DNA of 64,000 nucleotides. Origin: Escherichia phage Ec_Makalu_002. Positions within the stretch are counted from its first letter, which is position 1, and each line of letters opens with the position of its first letter. The notes below the pieces were generated by a model, which saw nothing but the letters and a program-made list of their open reading frames with translations, did not search any database and was not told the origin of the DNA. The translations under genes were made by a program, and so were the position numbers. The stretch is from sequence record MN709127.1. One strand, 5' to 3'. Below are positions 22,922 through 54,323 of the stretch, piece after piece.

Positions 22922-23083
22922 TTAAGAAAAAGCGTTGAAAACAACCGCCAACACAACTACGTTAGCGATAAGGCTTAAAAAGCATTTCTTGAAACTTTCA
23001 GTGCAGATACCAATACTGGCAGGAATTACACCGATCACGATAGCATAAAGAATAACTGCGATTTCTTGAAATACACCGTTCAT
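22922..23083 (-). CDS. hypothetical small hydrophobic protein (53 aa)
   Basis: Hand-translated (MNGVFQEIAVILYAIVIGVIPASIG...); predicted membrane peptide. Confidence 0.35.
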   Translation of the reverse strand: MNGVFQEIAVILYAIVIGVIPASIGICTESFKKCFLSLIANVVVLAVVFNAFS

Positions 23084-39779: not shown

Positions 39780-40148
39780 TCAACCTTTTTGTTCCATGAA
39801 AAGCGGTGCTGTTTCTTCTTTCAGTTTAATAACTAGCGCGGAAACTTCATCAAGAAAATCTTTTTCCATATGAGCAAGCATTGATTTAGAATCTTTGATG
39901 ACTTTCAAAGAATATTCACTTAGATTTCCTTTTCCTAACAATAATGCAGGATACACACTATGTGGGATCTCGATTTCATGATATTCGCTCATAGTATAAT
40001 ATTTGTGAATTTTTAAATCTATATTTCTTCGTTGTACGTCCACATCAGCAATGACATACAGAAGTTCGATTTTATCACTTTTCTGGGAAAGGGTAGCATT
40101 CAAAAACATTGTTAATCCTCCGTTGTTTCGATGTGTGGTATTATACAT
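39780..40148 (-). CDS. hypothetical protein (122 aa)
   Basis: ORF track. Confidence 0.45.
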   Translation of the reverse strand: MYNTTHRNNGGLTMFLNATLSQKSDKIELLYVIADVDVQRRNIDLKIHKYYTMSEYHEIEIPHSVYPALLLGKGNLSEYSLKVIKDSKSMLAHMEKDFLDEVSALVIKLKEETAPLFMEQKG

Positions 40149-41263: not shown

Positions 41264-41860
41264 TTAATTGCTTGTCAATATTTTATCAATTATATCTAAC
41301 AGTTTTGGTTTTCTATTTTCAAATTCTAACATCTCTTCGGGAGAAATGTCAACTACTTCTGTTTTGTTGAAAAAGTTTGGGTCTATAGCATCAGCAACAA
41401 AGTTTCTCGCAAGTGCTGCCGCTTTCTCATGAACATATATTCCCAAATATATCAACTTCTTTCTTTCGACCTGAATATTGGCAACATATTTACCATCTCG
41501 TTTATAAAGACTAACGCCGATATATTCAGATGATCGACCTTTCTGTTTACCCATATTTCTTGAGTTTTGTTGCTCGTTCGCATCTCTCAAGTTTTCAATC
41601 CGATTATCTGTTATAATTCGGTTAATATGGTCAACGTATTTTGGCATGTATCCATGATGCATAAAGAAAATTATTCTATGCTCCTTATGATGTTTACCAT
41701 CGATACACACCAATCTGTATCCATGACTAGGATTAACTCCACCCGCTCTAGATCCGACTTTATGCTTTCTGTTTGTCGATATCTTGCGAATCAGCTTACC
41801 GTTATCATATTTAAAGAGTTCATGACAACGGGCATACAATTCAGGATCATATGTTTTCAC
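41264..41860 (-). CDS. HNH homing-type endonuclease with AP2-like DNA-binding domain
   Basis: HHGYMPKYVDHINRIITDNRIENLR (HNH) plus SEYIGVSLYKRDGKYVANIQ (AP2-like); 198 aa. Confidence 0.7.
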   Translation of the reverse strand: MKTYDPELYARCHELFKYDNGKLIRKISTNRKHKVGSRAGGVNPSHGYRLVCIDGKHHKEHRIIFFMHHGYMPKYVDHINRIITDNRIENLRDANEQQNSRNMGKQKGRSSEYIGVSLYKRDGKYVANIQVERKKLIYLGIYVHEKAAALARNFVADAIDPNFFNKTEVVDISPEEMLEFENRKPKLLDIIDKILTSN

Positions 41861-42524
41861 CTTTTAACCTCGATATTTCTTTACACTCTTTAACTACTTT
41901 AACAAATAATGCTCTTGCTTTTGTGGCGTCAATAACAAGTAGTTTCTTGTACGCCTTCATTTTAACACTATAAGTTTGCCAAATCAAGTCTTTGGCTACC
42001 TTGTCGTGTTCGTCGATTATATTTAGAAAGCTATCTAACAACATAAACGACTCAAACGATATAATCCGATTTTGCAGTAGTTTAAAGATACCGCTAGTTT
42101 CGGTTGCGGGATTGTATGTAATTAGCTCTTTAAGAGTAACCCCGCGTTTCTCTGAGAAATATACAAGACTTTTAATGTCATCGTCAAATCGTGTTGCCGC
42201 ATCGGTTATCTTTCCTATGTATTCCATATAAAAGCCGTATGCGTCAACATCAGTGATTTCACCTACCCATGCATCGGTATTAGCTACCAGATTGCTTAGG
42301 AATAGGAAGTATAATTCTCTTAGATTGTACTTTTCCGCTAATTTCGCGAAATAATACTTATCTCTGCGTTTATTGAATGCGGCATCAGATAACCGCATCC
42401 TCCAATTGTATTTTACGCAATCATAACGCCCGTTCATATGAGCTTTCATCATGCAATATAACATATACACAGATTTAGCATTAATTCGCATATCTGGATC
42501 TGGAGGAAGACGGTTTCTGATCAT
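41847..42524 (-). CDS. 59: helicase loader gp59
   Basis: Strong match to remembered T4 gp59 (KSVYMLYCMMKAHMNGRYD, ISFESFMLLDSFLNIID). Confidence 0.9.
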   Translation of the reverse strand: MIRNRLPPDPDMRINAKSVYMLYCMMKAHMNGRYDCVKYNWRMRLSDAAFNKRRDKYYFAKLAEKYNLRELYFLFLSNLVANTDAWVGEITDVDAYGFYMEYIGKITDAATRFDDDIKSLVYFSEKRGVTLKELITYNPATETSGIFKLLQNRIISFESFMLLDSFLNIIDEHDKVAKDLIWQTYSVKMKAYKKLLVIDATKARALFVKVVKECKEISRLKGENI

Positions 42525-42533
42525 ACATACCCC

Positions 42534-42803
42534 TTAAATATCGAGAGTGTTGGTCGGTTCGTCGATCACTCCCTTCCTGAGCGTTCTATTTACTATACAT
42601 TCTTGTGTGATCTTGTCAATAATGGACACCGGAATATACTTCTGATAGTGACCATATTCGATAGAGTTTTCCTCTACAAACTGAGTGGTCGCTTCAAGAT
42701 AAGTCAATCCCTCTTCAACAACCAGTTTTTCGATTGCAAGACCGTTTGCTGTTTTGTTCGCGGCTTTTACCGCATGTTCATTAAGCATTGAACACCCGAT
42801 CAT
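42534..42803 (-). CDS. 33: late-transcription co-activator gp33
   Basis: EEGLTYLEATTQFVEENSIE matches T4 gp33 core; synteny. Confidence 0.75.
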   Translation of the reverse strand: MIGCSMLNEHAVKAANKTANGLAIEKLVVEEGLTYLEATTQFVEENSIEYGHYQKYIPVSIIDKITQECIVNRTLRKGVIDEPTNTLDI

Positions 42804-43056
42804 AGAGTTCTACCGCTTCGTCGCGTTCTGCTTCGAAGGTTTCGCGCTGTTGCTGGTGATATAGTTTAAACAGAATACCCCACATTTTACCATCTACGCC
42901 TAATTCTTCTTTAGCACGCTGTTTGATCTCTTTGATCTTATCGCCATATGCTTCTTGAATGGTTTTCTGATCGCTGGCTTCTTTAATCAGTTGTGCCAGT
43001 GTATTTCCGTGTACTGCTTCATCAAATACTACTTTTTCTTTTTTCTGTTCAGTCAT
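42781..43056 (-). CDS. dsbA: DsbA-like dsDNA-binding protein
   Basis: 91 aa ORF in the T4 dsbA position between 33 and rnh. Confidence 0.55.
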   Translation of the reverse strand: MTEQKKEKVVFDEAVHGNTLAQLIKEASDQKTIQEAYGDKIKEIKQRAKEELGVDGKMWGILFKLYHQQQRETFEAERDEAVELYDRVFNA

Positions 43057-43060
43057 AATA

Positions 43061-43657
43061 TTAACCCTCTTTAGTCATTAATTGAAAACCACGTTCAGCT
43101 TTTGAGATTTCGCTAGGACTTAAATCGTCACCCACATATTCTAGCATCATTTCTCGGATAATGTCAAGTGCTTTTTCATCACCTGATTTTAACTCGAACT
43201 CAAGTTCATAGTGAGCCTCTCCCATTCTTTCGCCGACTTTGCAATAATAGAAAGTGTCTTTGCACATTTCCACTATAGCACCCTCAAGGTCAAGTGTCAA
43301 TGACTTGCGGTATGTCATTACTTGCAATAAAGGAACGATAAGGTCGGAGTTTACGCCTAGACTATCAACATAATGATAGAAATCATCCATTGTTGAAAAA
43401 GTGATTTCTTCTCGGTTGAATAGTCCAGATTCACTATCACCTATTTTGACCATGATCAATGATCTATTAACGTCAAGTCGAGCATAAATTCCTTTTCGAC
43501 GCAGTGCATGATCTTCGGTATCATAATAAAATTCGTGTTTTAGTGTGTTAGCATGATCTACGATATTGTACCCGTCATACATTGCTACCAACAAATCACA
43601 GATTGTTTCGACGCCAATTTGTGAGTGTGCATAGTATTTTAATTCAAGTTCTTTCAT
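43061..43657 (-). CDS. CYTH-like (triphosphate tunnel metalloenzyme) domain protein
   Basis: N-terminal ELELK (ExExK) and C-terminal ELEFE acidic strand; 198 aa. Confidence 0.5.
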   Translation of the reverse strand: MKELELKYYAHSQIGVETICDLLVAMYDGYNIVDHANTLKHEFYYDTEDHALRRKGIYARLDVNRSLIMVKIGDSESGLFNREEITFSTMDDFYHYVDSLGVNSDLIVPLLQVMTYRKSLTLDLEGAIVEMCKDTFYYCKVGERMGEAHYELEFELKSGDEKALDIIREMMLEYVGDDLSPSEISKAERGFQLMTKEG

Positions 43658-43667
43658 ATGTCAACCC

Positions 43668-44615
43668 TTAGAACTCACCAATTTTCTGCAACATTTTAAC
43701 TAACGCATTTGTTACAAAATAGTTATAAATTTTACCGCGTGGTGCTGGTTTAGATTTCTCCCATGCTAACAAAATTTCATATTCGATGTTATCAGGAATA
43801 AATTCAAAATCAATAAGTTCGCGGTTTTCGTCAAAGCGTCGTGCTTCTTCCTCTGTCATCAAAGACTTTGGATCTTCGGCATCGAAAATTTGCTCTAACC
43901 ATTTGGTTGCAATTGGTTTAGCTCGTTCCCCTTCCAGTCGTGAGATAATGAAATCACTACGGCACTTGATAGAAGCTACACCGTCTTTTGCGTCACCCTT
44001 AACACATTTTACCATAAGGTCTTTGTAAGGACTACCATATTTGCATTTCTTCCATGCTTTCTGTACTGGTGCCCACTGTTTCACATTTTTGTATTTGTGC
44101 AACTGTGTGTAGTCACCATCGCCGGAGTTGATTAGCACTTGGCGACCTTCTACAGAAAACTTTTTAGTTAACACAGCGATTATATCATCCGCTTCAACTT
44201 TGTCAACCTTAATAACGTGATAAGGCATGTTCTCTTTAAACTCTTCGGTGATCTTATTGATCGCAGCAAAGATCATATCCCAATCACGCGGATCTGCGTC
44301 TCGTTTTTCCTTACGGTTGCGTTTATAGTAAGGTGCGATATCACGTCGCCAGTAACCTTTGCTTGAATCAAAGGCAAGTACCGTAATTGGGTATTGCTCT
44401 TTGAATTTTGTCATATTATAACGCATGGTGTCAAGAATAAGATGACGGATCATACCTTCACTAATAGGATCTTCCGGTTTAAAGGTATGCGAGATAGTAG
44501 CAATCATAAGCTGCGACATATCAATCAAATGCACACCTTCCGGTAGTTTATCTTCTGGATCATCGAAGAAATCATTAAGTGTAGCGGTCGTTTTTGTAAA
44601 CGGGTTATACGTCAT
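43668..44615 (-). CDS. rnh: RNase H / flap endonuclease
   Basis: Aligns with remembered T4 RNase H (SGYWRRD, INSGDGDYTQLHKYKNVKQW). Confidence 0.9.
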   Translation of the reverse strand: MTYNPFTKTTATLNDFFDDPEDKLPEGVHLIDMSQLMIATISHTFKPEDPISEGMIRHLILDTMRYNMTKFKEQYPITVLAFDSSKGYWRRDIAPYYKRNRKEKRDADPRDWDMIFAAINKITEEFKENMPYHVIKVDKVEADDIIAVLTKKFSVEGRQVLINSGDGDYTQLHKYKNVKQWAPVQKAWKKCKYGSPYKDLMVKCVKGDAKDGVASIKCRSDFIISRLEGERAKPIATKWLEQIFDAEDPKSLMTEEEARRFDENRELIDFEFIPDNIEYEILLAWEKSKPAPRGKIYNYFVTNALVKMLQKIGEF

Positions 44616-44617
44616 AA

Positions 44618-44803
44618 TTAAGTTCTCTCCACTCTCACAACAACAGACTCATCAAACGAGTTAGATACTTCACGGTCATACCCGTATTTCTCCATAACTC
44701 GCAGAATTGCATTGTTTAATTCGGCACGGAAATAATTATAATCCTTATCAGGGATTCTGTCAACTACCCATTTTGCACCTTCTGACAAATCAACTTTAAC
44801 CAT
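44618..44803 (-). CDS. hypothetical small protein (61 aa)
   Basis: ORF track; ATGA-coupled upstream of rnh. Confidence 0.4.
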   Translation of the reverse strand: MVKVDLSEGAKWVVDRIPDKDYNYFRAELNNAILRVMEKYGYDREVSNSFDESVVVRVERT

Positions 44804-44841
44804 AATATATCATCCTCTTTTGTTTCTATCAAGCCTCATTT

Positions 44842-44849
44842 TATAAATA
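44842..44849 (+). promoter_or_regulatory. late promoter box TATAAATA upstream of gene 34
   Basis: Exact TATAAATA about 29 nt upstream of ATG 44878. Confidence 0.65.
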
Positions 44850-44877
44850 TGAACATACTATAAAAGGAGACCCAATA

Positions 44878-47800
44878 ATGGCAGATTTTTCTCAACATTT
44901 CAAGGCCACATTTGGCTTTGACGCTGGTAATGAAAAGGTCGTCAATGTAGCATTGGCTGATAAAAACACATCAACGGATGCGGTCAACGTTGAGTTTTTC
45001 AATTACCATAATGGTATTACTCAGTATGACACAACTCGCGGTTATGATCAATACGGAACTACAATCTATCAAAACCGTCCGTATTATGCAAAAGAAGATA
45101 TCACAAAGCCAGCAGGTGATTTTGACCCGACTAAATGGCAAGCACTGCGCACGGACCCACGTTGGGATTATATTGCAGCAACTTCCGGTGATACTCCTTT
45201 AAAGTCTGGTGATTATATCGCAGCAGATGGTCAATTTGCAAACTTGACTTTCTCTATGCCAACTAAACCAGCAGAGGGAGACACTATAACAGTAAAAGAT
45301 ATCGGTGGCAAGTGTGGTGTTAACGAATTATCGTTCTTGAGTTCAGGACATGAGTTTTACCATAACGGTAATGTGTATAACCGAAAATGGTATTGCACTA
45401 CCCCGTATGCAATGAACTATTTCATCTTTGTTCGTAATCGTTGGCATGTTTATCAGACAGGAACAGAGCCACGCGGTGTGTACGCACAGCCAGCGATTGA
45501 TGCTATTCAAATGCAGAATGGTGATCAGGTATTTCGTCGTAGTTCTTTGGGTAATATTACCTTAGTGCTTCCTAAGTTTGCCAACAATGGCGACATGATC
45601 CAGACTACAGACCTTGACGGATTAACCGTAACCAACCACGTTACGGTTAAAGTTCATGAGCACGCAGAAGAACAATCAATTGGCACGTCCGGTCTAAAAG
45701 AGATTATCGGTAAGCGTAGCGGTCATGGTGTATTCATCTTTGACAAGACGGAAAACTTATGGCGTTTGTGGGATGGTGATCAGTCTGTTCGTCTTAAACC
45801 GATCATCGATGACACTCGCTTGCAACCTAATAGCTATGTTGCCGTATTTGGTGATCGTGATGTTACTCTGACGCTGCCGACCAATGTCGAGCCGGGTGAT
45901 CGTATTCAAGTTTCTATGCAGTATATGCACGGAAACCAGAATTGCCGTATTATCACCGCCACAGAGGATACAAAAATCCTCATGTCGAAAAACATGGTTC
46001 AGTTTCCGAAGCGTAGCGAGTACCCATTCAACGGGACCGACACATGGAAGGAAGTGTCTGAATTGTCGTTCAATGCGGCTAGTGATTATGTACCTTATCT
46101 GGAGTTCTCTTATTCAGAAGGTGATGATGGTAAGAAACATTGGCTGGTAGCACACTCTCATCCGATCGTCGAACGAGTAGACCCTACTCGTAAAGATCGT
46201 GTTGGTGTCATTGCACTGGCTACCCAGACTGAAACGAATAAAAACCATGAAGAGAATCCTAGCGACGAAGTTGCCGTAACACCAAAAATGCTGGCTAATA
46301 AAACAGCCAACGAAACTCGACGCGGTATTGCTCGTATTGCTACTCAGGCGGAAACGCATCAAGATACTGGTTCCAGCTTCCTGGATGATGTTATCGTTAC
46401 ACCTAAAAAGTTAAATGACTGTGTTGCTACCGAAGCCCGTCGTGGTGTGATGGAAATTGCAACCCAGCACGAAACCAATGAAGGTTTAGACGATACACGC
46501 GCTATTACTCCTAAGAAATTAGAAGAACGTCGCGCTTCCGAAGACCTCGCTGGTATTGCTGAAATTGTTCAGGTAGGCGGTCGTGCTGCCGCTCGACGTG
46601 GTGAAGCTGGTACAGGGATCTATAACATCAATGACCATGCTAAAATTGTTACACCACAAAACATCAACGAGGTCAAGGCGACCGAAACTTCCCGTGGTGT
46701 TGGCTATCTGGCAACTGACGCGGAAGTGCAAGGGGCTACAGAATCAACACCGCAAGATGCTTTACTAATCACGACTCGCACGCTAACGAAACGTACTGCT
46801 ACCGAATCGCGCACTGGTATCGCTGAAATTGCAACTCAGGAAGAAACAAACTTAGGTCAAAGTGATAACCATATCATCACGCCTAAAAAGCTGCATACTC
46901 GCCGTGCGACGGAAACTCTACACGGTTTAGCAGAAATTGCAACTCAGCCGGAATTTGACGCAGGTCTTGACGATGCTCGCATTTCTACCCCATTGAAGAT
47001 TAAAACCTTCTTTGAGAATGCACAGCGTTTGAAAGTAGATCCGACTCAGGGGCTTAACCTTACTGGTGATTTGTGGCAAGGTATCATGATCAGCGGTCTG
47101 GACGCAACCGAAGACACAAAAGGTGTCGCTAAAGTTGCTACTACTCAGCTTACTGACGCTGGTCAAGATGATACTACAATCATCACGCCTAAAAAGCTGC
47201 AAGGCAAAAAGGCCACCGAAGGTAAAGAAGGTATTATCCGAGTTGGTACTCAAGCCGAAACCGTGGCTGGTACACTGGCTAATGTAGCAATTTCTCCGAA
47301 GAACTTCAAATATGTTGTTCAGACAGAGGATACATGGAAAGCAACCGAAGCTCGTCGTGGTTTCTTGAAAGTTGCTACTCAGGAAAACTGTTTTGTTGGT
47401 GACAATCTGCAAGGTTCTACTCAAGAACTAGGAAACTACCAGCATGACGGAATTGCTGTTACTCCGAAAGGATTAAACTACGCACTTGCTAATTTCTTGC
47501 CTAAGATGGCAACCGCTCAGAATAGTTTGAAATTGGGTAACGTAGAGGCCGCTAAATGGGCGCGTAGAGACATTGACCAGACCATAGAGAGCAATTACAC
47601 GTTTAATAAAAACGTTAACGTGAAGGGCGATTTAGAGTGCTTAAAATCAGGTTCCTTTGAAACTCTGTATGTGACTAAGAACTCTACTGATGATCCGAGT
47701 AATGGTCATCTGGTGTTGGGTGAGCGTGGAGTTGACGGTCACACCGGAATTACTCTGCATGGCACAACCGCATCGGAAGGCATGAAAAACTCCTGGTCTA

Positions 47801-51554: not shown

Positions 51555-54323
51555 ATGGCAGATTTAAGCAGAATCCAATTTAAACGTACTAGCACTAAAG
51601 GCCGTCGACCTGATGCTGGTACGATGAATCCGGGGGAATTGGCAATCAACCTTGCGGATCAATATCTTCTTACTAAAAATGATTCCGGCGCTATTATCAA
51701 TTTAAGTTGTCCTCCGGTTTATGACCGTGATGTTACAATGGCGGGTAAGGTTAAAGGAAATAATTATATTTTAAGTAAAACCGCCAATTATCTGGAAGAC
51801 CAGACAGCGAGAGATCTTAACTACTTTGGTGCTTTCCGTACCAATAGTCTAGATGGACTCATGGATCTAACCCTTAACGTTCCTCACTCTTCCGGTAAAG
51901 CGCATGGTCGAGGATTTACTTTCCGTTATGGGACTGGCGGATCTCGTGTTGAAACCTATGGTTTTGATGTTCAGGGACAAAAAGCATTTAGTTATAAAAT
52001 GTATCATGAAGGGGATAAACCGACTCCCTCAGAATTGAACGTTTATAGCAAACAAGAAGTTGACCGTATGTTTGTTAAAACCGTTAAACTTGCTACAGTT
52101 CCTGTTGATATCGTTGACGGTTATTTTAAATTAGCAACTGCATTGATTCCGCAAAACGGTCGTAGTGTATTTTTCCGTATTCATGGTGGTAACGGATATA
52201 ACGTTACTGCATACGATCAAGTTGATATTGTAGAAATTGTTATTCGCAGTGGAAATAATCGTCCTAAAGGTGTTAACGTTATTGCATACCGCCGAAATAC
52301 AAACAAAGCATTTGATGTTTTGGCTGTTAATACTTCTGGTGATAACTATGATATCTACGTGAAATATCAGCGTTACACTGATAACGTTATTGTTGAATTT
52401 GGTAAAAGTGTTGATGTTGATCTGGTAGTCCATGACGTTCCAGACTTTGTTGTTGATCGTCCTGTTGGCGATAATGTTATTGGCGGTCGCGCGGTAACTC
52501 TTTTTAACACCGAAAACAAACGAGGTGTGTTGAGTTTTGACGATAACACACAAAATAGTTATGATATTGTTCACTTGAGTAATGATAAAGGTACTGGACG
52601 GAAATATATTCGTAAATTCCGTAGTAACTATAATGAAATGATCTGGCATGAGACTGTTCAAGGTTCTACTTATCGACTCGCCACGGGTAGTACAGATGCT
52701 CAGGAAATTATAACTATTGAATCTAGTAGCTCAATTGCTGGAACTCATAAAGGTAATATTATTTCTGGTCGTATGCTGTTAAATGGCGGATCTAATGCCA
52801 TTACACTACGCCGACCTGCTGGTCAATCTAATCATATTGCGTTTCAAGATAATCGTACTGGAGATATTACCCGTCAAGGTTGGCTGGGCTACGCAAACGC
52901 CGATACTGACGTTTTTGAATGGTATAGTGATGTAGGTGGCAGTTCTATTCGTCAACATATCGACGGACAGATCGAATTTCAGACAGGTAACATGAAGCGA
53001 GTCTATACCAACGGTCAATTCATTTCTTTATATGCTGATGGCTTCCGTACTGTATATGGTAACTATGGTTCATGGTGGCGAAATGACGGCAGCAACGTTT
53101 ATCTGATGAGCACAAAATCAGGCGACACTATGGGTCCGTGGAATACCTTTAGGCCGTTCATCTATAGCCTAGCCAATGGAAACGTTACACTAGGTGGTAG
53201 CGACGCTGGCAACCATTTAATGCGTCTCAACAATGAAAATCGTCAAGTAGAAATAAATGCAACAACACATTTAGGGTCTCGATTATATTGGGAAGGTAGC
53301 GAAGGTTCTGCATCTAGATTTTTTATTAAGAATTGGGGTGATGGAACTTCTCGCGCTCAGGTGTGGGAACTTGCAGACGAAACAAGCTATCATCTATATT
53401 CTCAGCGTGATTCTAACGGTTCGATTCAATTCCGAGTTGCTGGTAGTTTAGAAACGGGTGGTCGTGCTCAGATAAATGGTGATTTGGTGGTTACTAATGT
53501 TTTGCGTACCAATAACCAAATTCAGATTTATCGCGATAACAACAAAGAAATCTGGTTTAAGGATGCTGATGGTACTAACCGTGGTGTTATCTGGGGTGGC
53601 GCTGACGGTAAAATGAGACTGCGCAATTATTCTAGCGGAGAGTATGACCATGTGTTTGAAGCTGGTATGATTCGCCTTGAGCGTGGTTATGCTAATGGAC
53701 AAGGTGCTGGCTTGATTCGTGGTGAGGTTCAAGGTGGAGCGTGGTCCGACTGGAGAACTCGTGCTGCTGGTTTATTAGTTGACTGCCCTAATGCTCAAAC
53801 TTCCGCATATAACGTATGGAAAGCGACCAAATGGGGATTAGACCACATCGCGGCAATGGGCGTTCATATTCCTAGCGGTGTTGTTGGTAACTCTATTGCG
53901 CGTTTGCATGTTGGTGGCACTAACTTTGATTTTAGCGCTACTGGTGACTTTACCGCAGGTCGTAACGGTTCGTTTAACGATGTGTACATTCGTTCTGATG
54001 CTCGCCTGAAAATCAATAAGGAAGAGTATAAAGAGAATGCCACCGATAAAGTTAATCGCTTGACTGTGTACACCTACGATAAGGTTAAGTCTTTGACGGA
54101 CCGCACTGTTATCGCTCATGAAGTTGGTATTATTGCTCAGGATCTTGAGAAAGAATTGCCGGAAGCAGTAACAACTTCTAAGGTCGGCGATCCTGATAAG
54201 CCAGAAGAGATCTTAACAATTTCTAACTCTGCTGTCAACGCTCTTTTAATTAAGGCGTTTCAGGAAATGAGCGAAGAATTGAAAGCCGTTAAAGCTGAAC
54301 TAGCGGAACTTAAAAAGAATTAA
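51555..54323 (+). CDS. 37: long tail fibre distal subunit gp37 with C-terminal intramolecular chaperone-like domain
   Basis: N-terminus matches T4 gp37; C-terminus SDARLKINKEE...IIAQDLEKELPEAV...coiled coil resembles S74-type auto-cleaving chaperone. Confidence 0.85.
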   Translation: MADLSRIQFKRTSTKGRRPDAGTMNPGELAINLADQYLLTKNDSGAIINLSCPPVYDRDVTMAGKVKGNNYILSKTANYLEDQTARDLNYFGAFRTNSLDGLMDLTLNVPHSSGKAHGRGFTFRYGTGGSRVETYGFDVQGQKAFSYKMYHEGDKPTPSELNVYSKQEVDRMFVKTVKLATVPVDIVDGYFKLATALIPQNGRSVFFRIHGGNGYNVTAYDQVDIVEIVIRSGNNRPKGVNVIAYRRNTNKAFDVLAVNTSGDNYDIYVKYQRYTDNVIVEFGKSVDVDLVVHDVPDFVVDRPVGDNVIGGRAVTLFNTENKRGVLSFDDNTQNSYDIVHLSNDKGTGRKYIRKFRSNYNEMIWHETVQGSTYRLATGSTDAQEIITIESSSSIAGTHKGNIISGRMLLNGGSNAITLRRPAGQSNHIAFQDNRTGDITRQGWLGYANADTDVFEWYSDVGGSSIRQHIDGQIEFQTGNMKRVYTNGQFISLYADGFRTVYGNYGSWWRNDGSNVYLMSTKSGDTMGPWNTFRPFIYSLANGNVTLGGSDAGNHLMRLNNENRQVEINATTHLGSRLYWEGSEGSASRFFIKNWGDGTSRAQVWELADETSYHLYSQRDSNGSIQFRVAGSLETGGRAQINGDLVVTNVLRTNNQIQIYRDNNKEIWFKDADGTNRGVIWGGADGKMRLRNYSSGEYDHVFEAGMIRLERGYANGQGAGLIRGEVQGGAWSDWRTRAAGLLVDCPNAQTSAYNVWKATKWGLDHIAAMGVHIPSGVVGNSIARLHVGGTNFDFSATGDFTAGRNGSFNDVYIRSDARLKINKEEYKENATDKVNRLTVYTYDKVKSLTDRTVIAHEVGIIAQDLEKELPEAVTTSKVGDPDKPEEILTISNSAVNALLIKAFQEMSEELKAVKAELAELKKN

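Follow-up and report, generated by a model that had tools for sequence, protein, structure and literature searches.

YgiF, a member of the CYTH or triphosphate tunnel metalloenzyme (TTM) superfamily, is a specific inorganic triphosphatase (PPPase) without cyclase activity (PMC3440374), and in both sequence and structure it is the closest neighbor of the phage protein described here. Its Glu 160 completes metal site 1, and Glu 4, Glu 6, and Glu 162 hold the water-activating metal 2. Lys 69 binds the substrate and orients the first Glu, and structural and mutagenesis work found Arg 56 to be essential and proposed it as the proton donor (PMC4641920). AtTTM3 can do without the second Arg of its RxR strand, and the concept of a plug helix in TTMs comes from the same study (PMC4641920). 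Class IV adenylyl cyclases carry the signature HFxxxxExExK, a small residue in place of the first Arg, and ExA on strand β8 (Vogt et al., PMC8233210). Thiamine triphosphatases are marked by W/Y-x-R-x-R, and in the remaining hydrolases the first slot is filled by a small residue and ExE is kept (PMC8233210). "Adenylate cyclase" labels on CYTH proteins are often mis-annotations (PMC8233210, PMC3440374). The role of the class IV cyclases is yet to be established (PMC8233210), that of YgiF has been doubted (PMC3440374), and the physiological roles of CYTH/TTM proteins are largely elusive even in E. coli.

Phage CYTH triphosphatases have been noted before (PMC7824862; Aeh1ORF004c in PMC1524935), and the clearing of unmodified NTPs in modified-base phages has been proposed as the role of some of them (PMC7824862). 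The CYTH Pfam match of RB49ORF244c was tabulated already in 2006 (PMC1524935). The presence of a CYTH protein in a T4-like phage is thus correct, already on record, and not surprising; the domain assignment has been published, and what is new here is the pattern of allele exchange and evolution. Throughout, "the window" is the whole stretch of 64,000 nucleotides that was analyzed.

Identity of the gene

The window is a segment of a Krischvirus genome (an RB49/JSE-like relative of T4). Over positions 42500-45000 its DNA is 98.2% identical to that of JSE and 96.8% identical to that of RB49, and the CYTH protein is 97-98% identical to the RB49 and JSE proteins. The orthologs are RB49ORF244c, JSE EpJSE_00248 (labeled "hypothetical protein"), and phi1 ORF245. 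The 198-codon ORF starts at the first possible start codon following an in-frame stop, and its checked translation begins M-K-E-L-E-L-K and has E-L-E-F-E-L-K at residues 151-157. The preliminary description, which had placed a 198-residue ORF with ELELK and ELEFE motifs between dsbA and rnh, agrees with the ORF, its coordinates, and its translation (Table 1). It had also stated that T4 has no gene in this interval, which is correct, since T4 dsbA and rnh are only 8 nt apart.

A search of PHROGs gave a full-length match to phrog_14893, which is the family's own group and is categorized as of unknown function, and neither the NCBIfam models nor PADLOC matched the protein. Pfam matches in the neighborhood were to RNase H, DsbA, gp33, gp59, an HNH-AP2 homing endonuclease, and gp32. 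This is an intact, real gene of RB49-like coliphages, predicted from its sequence to encode a small, metal-dependent CYTH-family enzyme.

Table 1. Positions of the CYTH gene, its neighbors, and the sequence features discussed in the text
Feature	Position	Strand	Basis or remark
CYTH/TTM gene, 198 aa	43061..43657	-	ORF; Pfam PF01928; phrog_14893
rnh (T4-type RNase H / 5'-3' exonuclease)	43668..44615	-	Pfam RNaseH_C, 5_3_exonuc_N; immediately upstream of CYTH gene
dsbA (late-transcription dsDNA-binding protein)	42781..43056	-	Pfam Phage_DsbA; 4 nt downstream of CYTH gene
Shine-Dalgarno-like AAGGG	43665..43669	-	7 nt upstream of CYTH ATG, overlaps rnh stop (TAAGGGTTGACATATG)
Perfect sigma70-consensus promoter-like site, TTGACA-17-TATAAT	44735..44763	-	Upstream of rnh; consensus match only
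Second perfect (12/12) sigma70-consensus site	44206-44179	-	Inside rnh
Exchangeable fast-evolving core, aa 11-149	43211..43627	-	DNA alignment with Skers
ExExK, E3-L-E5-L-K7, β1	43637..43651	-	Aligns to YgiF E4/E6/K8
Variant RxR strand, Y58-A-R60-L-D62, β3	43472..43486	-	hhalign, AF2 hairpin geometry, bridging-sequence alignment
K71	43445..43447	-	Equivalent of YgiF K69; invariant column
R82-E83-E84, β5	43406..43414	-	R82/E84 equivalent to YgiF R81/E83; invariant columns
R117, β6	43307..43309	-	Equivalent of YgiF R126; invariant column
E151-L-E153-F-E155-L-K157, β8	43187..43207	-	E153/E155 align to YgiF E160/E162; invariant
Plug helix, K186-AERGFQLM-T195	43073..43102	-	AF2; aligns to YgiF S190-K191-A-A-R194-G-Y; K186, R189 conserved

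Fold and active site

The protein matches Pfam PF01928 with 30.1 bits (gathering cut-off 23.2; E = 5.3e-7) over profile positions 1-178 of 179, and 12 of the 18 family members match it individually (E <= 0.01). A CYTH-type protein had been proposed from the two acidic motifs, together with a structure prediction as a check. The AF2 model is an eight-stranded antiparallel β tunnel with a C-terminal helix at residues 186-195, a plug that in the model closes one end of the tunnel. The proposal is supported by the Pfam match, the predicted tunnel, and the aligned motifs, with the acidic residues E3, E5, E153, and E155 falling on the YgiF catalytic positions E4, E6, E160, and E162. The highest identity to any characterized TTM is 28%. 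Both the ExExK motif, aligned to the metal-2 ligands, and the ExE on β8 are present; the RxR pair on β3 is incomplete, with a single Arg in either of the registers discussed below. Judged by its sequence, this makes the protein a variant within the CYTH superfamily and does not exclude it from membership. Pfam mRNA_triPase (PF02940) gave no match at E values up to 10, and the structural match to the RNA triphosphatases is much weaker than that to the small-molecule TTMs. The CHAD domain (PF05235) likewise had no match at E <= 10, and the protein stops three residues past the plug helix.

No family member departs from the ExExK motif, nor does any of 16 diverse CYTH proteins. The residues E3, E5, K7, K71, R82, E84, R117, E153, E155, and K186 are invariant throughout the family and in 12 distant CYTH proteins, and G56, Y58, R60, and D62 are invariant within the phage family. 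By analogy with YgiF, E3 and E5 are predicted to be metal-2 ligands and K7 to contact phosphate, while E153 is the predicted ligand of metal 1 and E155 a predicted ligand of metal 2.

The β3 strand, G56-I-Y58-A-R60-L-D62, can be aligned in two registers. HMMER and BLASTP place Y58 opposite YgiF R56, whereas hhalign places R60 opposite R56 and D62 opposite R58, both with YgiF alone and with a 65-sequence profile of the YgiF family. In the AF2 model of the YgiF tunnel, the hairpin has a tight two-residue N61-G62 turn, with K69 facing G54 and R56 facing T67; the phage model has a four-residue loop at 63-66 and K71 lies across from Y58. Bridging sequences from the exhaustive profile search lead from K-G-M-V-F-R-V-R in P0182, a canonical stand-alone CYTH protein, through K-G-M-V-A-R-V-D in the nearest outgroup, P0164, to the phage K-G-I-Y-A-R-L-D. 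Only the R60 register leaves a full catalytic set, which fits the strong conservation of the other catalytic residues. On these grounds (the hhalign result, the hairpin geometry, the bridging sequences, and the complete catalytic set), R60 is very likely the essential first Arg, equivalent to YgiF R56, and D62 the replacement of the second. If the Y58 register were right, the enzyme would be without the proposed proton donor; we rejected it on the profile-profile alignment, the YgiF model built by the same method, and the bridging sequences. In either register the phage protein has one Arg where the characterized hydrolases have two, as well as an invariant tunnel-facing Tyr. K157 was considered as a compensating novelty and rejected, given that YgiF-type proteins from Haemophilus and Pelagibacterium also have EIEFELKSG.

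Comparison with characterized CYTH enzymes

YgiF (PDB 5A60/5A61) is a CYTH-CHAD protein of 433 amino acids, whereas the phage protein has 198 and no CHAD domain; the bacterial relatives likewise extend past the tunnel domain (345 amino acids in Haemophilus, 493 in Pelagibacterium). The phage β3-β4 hairpin is two residues shorter than that of YgiF, and the slot of YgiF G54 is occupied by the invariant Tyr. Among the invariants of the YgiF family, R56, K69, and R126 have the phage counterparts R60, K71, and R117, but R58, E65, T67, and K128 are not kept; D62, L67, M69, and S119 stand in their places, and all of these but D62 vary between phage alleles. Unlike YgiF, the protein is phage-encoded and fast-evolving, and by these comparisons it is not a YgiF ortholog.

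The 25-kDa mammalian thiamine triphosphatase (ThTPase; PDB 3BHD, 5A64) has W/Y-x-R-x-R with both Arg, whereas the phage strand reads Y-x-R-x-D, and the two proteins are only about 14% identical. Phage Y58 occupies the -2 slot; in ThTPase this slot belongs to Trp-53, which is stacked against the thiazole ring beside the plug helix (PMC4641920). The Tyr in this ThTPase-like slot is replaced by Val or Ile in the nearest outgroups, P0164 and P0165. The stand-alone TTMs (NeuTTM, CthTTM, SaTTM, BH2851) and metagenomic CYTH proteins of about 200 amino acids are at most 30% identical to the phage protein and keep both Arg, the sole exception in the alignment of distant CYTH proteins being P0168.

Other viral CYTH/TTM proteins, including those of jumbo phages and Aeromonas phages and the capping triphosphatases of giant viruses and poxviruses, have the same fold but are structurally far more distant than bacterial YgiF (Foldseek TMq at most 0.5-0.56). 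The role proposed for other phage CYTH enzymes fits poorly here, because RB49 DNA carries unmodified cytosine (PMC4041780). Clearing of unmodified dNTPs for base replacement is therefore unlikely, as regards hydroxymethylcytosine only.

Distribution

A tblastn search of the phage collection found the gene in 58 Krischvirus records and in phage Skers (58% identity), and in no other phage group of that collection. A word-indexed search of 5.8 billion proteins returned only 43 clusters, all at least 44% identical, and HMMER, run with the phage-family profile against all 1.84 billion cluster representatives, gave 213 proteins at E <= 0.001, only six of them below 1e-10. The top four HMMER matches (P0040, P0043, P0164, and P0165) are encoded at the same place in T4-like contigs. 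The genes for P0043 and P0042 sit between rnh and dsbA; in the case of P0164 and P0165, dsbA and gene 33 follow directly downstream, and remnants of rnh are found on the upstream side. Among cellular proteins, those of the YgiF type come closest, at about 25% identity. In the library of viral structures, the close matches were all to members of this family, and the other phage CYTH proteins were more distant than YgiF. As far as these searches reach, the family is an accessory gene confined to RB49-like relatives of T4, always in the order rnh-CYTH-dsbA.

Exchange of the core and conservation of the tunnel

Between Skers and the window, genes 32, 59, 33, dsbA, and rnh are 98-100% identical (98-99% in the genes adjoining the core), and block averages over the whole 64 kb are 91-97.6%, whereas the DNA of the CYTH core is only 51% identical, with 51-54% across positions 43231-43590. 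The conserved backbone includes the first 30 nt and the last ~150 nt of the CYTH ORF. The alignment of Skers with the window has nine breaks, six of which are presence/absence indels; the others are the distal tail fibre, a 159-nt patch, and the CYTH core. Among the nine, only the CYTH core replaces part of an enzyme gene in frame and at equal length (417 vs 420 nt).

In the Skers comparison, the dS of the CYTH gene is 1.2-1.3, against 0.04-0.19 for the flanking genes, and its dN/dS is 0.28-0.31. The Phi1-type allele has a CYTH dS like that of its flanks and a dN/dS of 0.38, against at most 0.12 in the neighboring genes. In more distant phages the CYTH protein is 30-44% identical where DsbA and gp33 are 70-82% identical. 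Because synonymous divergence is also saturated, these sequences are best read as functional allele classes of long standing that recombination has carried between phages, and the gene evolves several times as fast as its neighbors. A diversity-generating or hypermutation mechanism for the core was rejected on the same saturation. The near identity of the C-terminal 50 amino acids was considered as a protein-level constraint, and this too was rejected, since they belong to the backbone outside the recombined core and are identical at synonymous sites as well. Base composition gave only a weak signal of foreign origin (cassettes of 0.32-0.39 GC, against 0.40).

Within residues 31-140, 20 of the 36 tunnel-facing strand positions are invariant and none of the 36 outward-facing ones (p = 5e-8), and helices α1 and α2 are nearly fully variable between alleles. 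A frozen tunnel within a changing shell argues for a working enzyme, and the pattern is compatible with phage-host conflict. Besides the slightly variant β3 strand, this fast-changing surface is the only trait that sets the protein apart.

The gene is intact in 58 records, and in the one other, vB_EcoM_G2494 (MK327935), it has a 1-nt deletion at codon 59. This deletion lies in the Y58-A59-R60 codons, with several transversions nearby, and splits the gene into two annotated ORFs; either this isolate has a genuine pseudogene, and the gene is dispensable, at least in culture, or the record has a sequencing error. The metagenomic allele P0033 has a 7-residue insertion (VSKVKVGDSEYE...) in the β3-β4 hairpin, apparently duplicated from the VKxGDSE segment just after it, which shows that the hairpin tip tolerates a change in length.

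Elsewhere in the comparison with Skers, a 53-amino acid, strongly hydrophobic ORF at 22922-23083 (minus strand) has a 190-nt counterpart that is 57% identical within a block of ~96% identity and is thus a second small replaced segment; its product is possibly a membrane protein in exclusion or lysis control. In place of the 321 nt at 39791-40111, Skers carries a GIY-YIG nuclease gene of 1.16 kb. The distal tail-fibre region at 51726-54311 is also replaced in Skers (2.6 kb vs 3.8 kb, 58% identity), as is expected for receptor-binding genes.

Probable function of the phage protein

We consider it likely that the phage protein is a stand-alone, catalytically competent TTM hydrolase, and not a cyclase, which has a YgiF-like scaffold, uses the two-metal mechanism, and possibly acts on an organic substrate. 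By homology to the two-metal TTM mechanism, from which we infer both catalysis and the class of substrate, a triphosphate-bearing substrate would enter the eight-stranded tunnel and be held by K7, R60, K71, R82, R117, and K186/R189. E153 would complete metal site 1 on the triphosphate, while E3, E5, and E155 would hold metal 2, so that water is activated to attack the terminal phosphate. R60 would assist the leaving group, and the products would be Pi and diphosphate. The exterior diversifies, and the core is exchanged between phages, while the tunnel is preserved. The natural substrate may bear an organic moiety, as in a nucleotide, thiamine triphosphate, a triphosphorylated signal, or an RNA end. 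The change of the second Arg to Asp, the Tyr in the ThTPase stacking slot, and the removal of PPPi by the host pyrophosphatase hint weakly at an organic-group substrate in preference to bare PPPi; the hint is weak because the nearest outgroups have Val or Ile for the Tyr.

Several other activities can be weighed against an organic-triphosphate hydrolase. A plain specific inorganic triphosphatase like YgiF or NeuTTM, removing PPPi during infection, is possible, though we doubt it. The PPPi could come from host dGTP/dNTP triphosphohydrolases or other PPPi-forming reactions, and defences based on dNTP triphosphohydrolases that release PPPi exist (bioRxiv 10.1101/2021.04.26.441389). YgiF is the nearest relative by both measures, the full two-metal site and the essential Arg are kept, and one GenBank record already carries the name "inorganic triphosphatase". 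However, the phage protein does not keep the YgiF invariants R58, E65, T67, and K128, has no CHAD domain, and carries an additional invariant Tyr in the tunnel. PPPi in E. coli extracts is hydrolyzed mainly by inorganic pyrophosphatase, the contribution of YgiF being insignificant (PMC3440374), so a phage PPPase seems redundant, and the removal of PPPi would not reverse a depletion of dNTPs. Other GenBank records of the gene are labeled "adenylate cyclase", but a class IV (CyaB-type) enzyme that makes cAMP or another cNMP in the infected cell, whether as an adenylyl cyclase or as some other nucleotidyl cyclase, seems to us most improbable. The class IV cyclases (CyaB; Yersinia pestis AC-IV, PDB 2FJT/3N10) have HFxxxxExExK. 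The phage protein is without the HF motif, and such an extension is impossible: the first Glu already stands at position 3, and the ORF has no room to grow upstream. Where the cyclases strictly have ExA on β8, the phage protein keeps ExE, with E155 invariant, and where the cyclases have a small neutral residue in place of the first Arg, R60 fills the column, so that the gate-keeper Arg is present in the better-supported register; the minority register would put a Tyr there, which is also not small. YgiF, the closest relative, is itself without cyclase activity. From the missing HF extension and the retained ExE and first Arg, the "adenylate cyclase" labels on several records are probably wrong.

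The constant position of the gene after rnh gave rise to the idea of an RNA or oligonucleotide 5'-triphosphatase, which would trim the 5'-ppp of lagging-strand primers (with the adjacent RNase H) or of transcripts and so alter their processing or decay. We think this improbable: there is no mRNA_triPase match and the fold is nearer to the small-molecule TTMs, one end of the tunnel is shut by the plug helix, as in small-molecule enzymes, and T4 manages without the gene. The fixed position may reflect vertical inheritance of the insertion and is not functional evidence. The protein might also be a non-enzymatic ligand-binding or decoy protein (a triphosphate "sponge", or a protein that inhibits a host factor or is its target) in which the diversifying surface is the functional part. 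The exterior and helices α1 and α2 are almost wholly variable, the core is swapped between near-isogenic phages, a pattern common for proteins of host-phage conflict, and the second Arg of RxR is lost. However, the metal-binding Glu and the catalytic Arg and Lys residues are invariant across alleles that are 44-59% identical and outgroups that are 30-35% identical, which would be hard to explain without catalysis, and dN/dS is well below 1; such a role is very hard to credit.

Taking the protein again to be a triphosphate hydrolase, it could serve as a counter-defence or host-takeover factor that hydrolyzes a triphosphate-bearing, nucleotide-like molecule, although we regard this as rather unlikely. 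Candidate targets would be an immune signal or the molecule from which it is made; alarm metabolites, among them thiamine triphosphate and adenosine-thiamine triphosphate; and oligonucleotides with a 5'-triphosphate. The conserved tunnel within a variable shell, the swapped allele classes, the aromatic residue in the stacking slot, and the redundancy of a plain PPPase all allow such a role, and a core that is swapped and evolves fast around a frozen active site hints at a part in phage-host conflict. If the proposal is true, the diversifying, exchangeable exterior would be the mark of an arms race with host factors sensing or inhibiting the enzyme. Neither PADLOC nor the literature indicated a particular defence system, and a literature search on phage CYTH function, PPPi and defence, and RB49 anti-defence found no functional study. 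A phage in which selection maintains a TTM at a constant genomic position could be a tractable route to a natural TTM substrate.

Expression signals and neighboring features

The CYTH gene lies on the same strand as rnh and dsbA, with gaps of 10 nt from rnh and 4 nt to dsbA. The junction of rnh with the CYTH gene is conserved in Skers, Phi1, and P0042 and also in the distant P0164 contig, and the dsbA Shine-Dalgarno sequence (AAAGAGGG) falls within the final CYTH codons. From the short gaps, the ribosome-binding site over the rnh stop, and the perfect sigma70 sites upstream, the CYTH gene is probably co-transcribed with rnh and dsbA and probably expressed early together with them. The site upstream of rnh is a candidate early promoter for an rnh-CYTH-dsbA transcript; near-perfect sigma70 early promoters are known for RB49-type phages (PMC4122927). 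The minus strand of positions 42400-45000 has 18 near-consensus sigma70 sites, two of them perfect 12/12 matches, against 7.8 +/- 2.9 expected.

Another sigma70-like site, TTGACA-N18-TAGAAT at 43138-43167 (minus strand), lies inside the 3' part of the CYTH ORF, ~80-110 nt before the dsbA start. All Krischvirus alleles have a site at the equivalent position, as do the very divergent P0164 and P0165 despite their different coding sequence, and the P0164 version is a perfect TTGACA-N17-TATAAT. This suggests that a real internal promoter for dsbA and gene 33 is embedded in the CYTH gene. At the other end, TTGACA-N17-TAAAAT at 43636-43664 (minus strand) spans the rnh stop, the ribosome-binding site, and the first CYTH codons, its -10 element being formed by the E-L-K codons. 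The motif is conserved in all alleles, its end is the exact start of the variable core, and it resembles the promoter-containing PeSL shuffling elements of RB49 and phi1. It could be a 5' recombination anchor, but coding constraint on ExExK is an equally good explanation.

The gene 32 side of the neighborhood holds an HNH_3-AP2 homing endonuclease gene (198 aa; 41264-41860, minus strand), which lies between genes 32 and 59 and shares 14 nt with the end of gene 59. Skers has it, and JSE, the RB49-like genome L005, and Phi1 do not; the same slot in T4 holds a different homing endonuclease, the GIY-YIG SegG. Upstream of rnh, a 61-amino acid ORF at 44618-44803 (minus strand) has no Pfam match and is conserved in JSE, Skers, Phi1, and metagenomic contigs. 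A T4-type late promoter box, TATAAATA, at 44842-44849 (plus strand) precedes the start of gene 34 by 29 nt, in the intergenic region between divergent genes; the window has only five boxes of this type.
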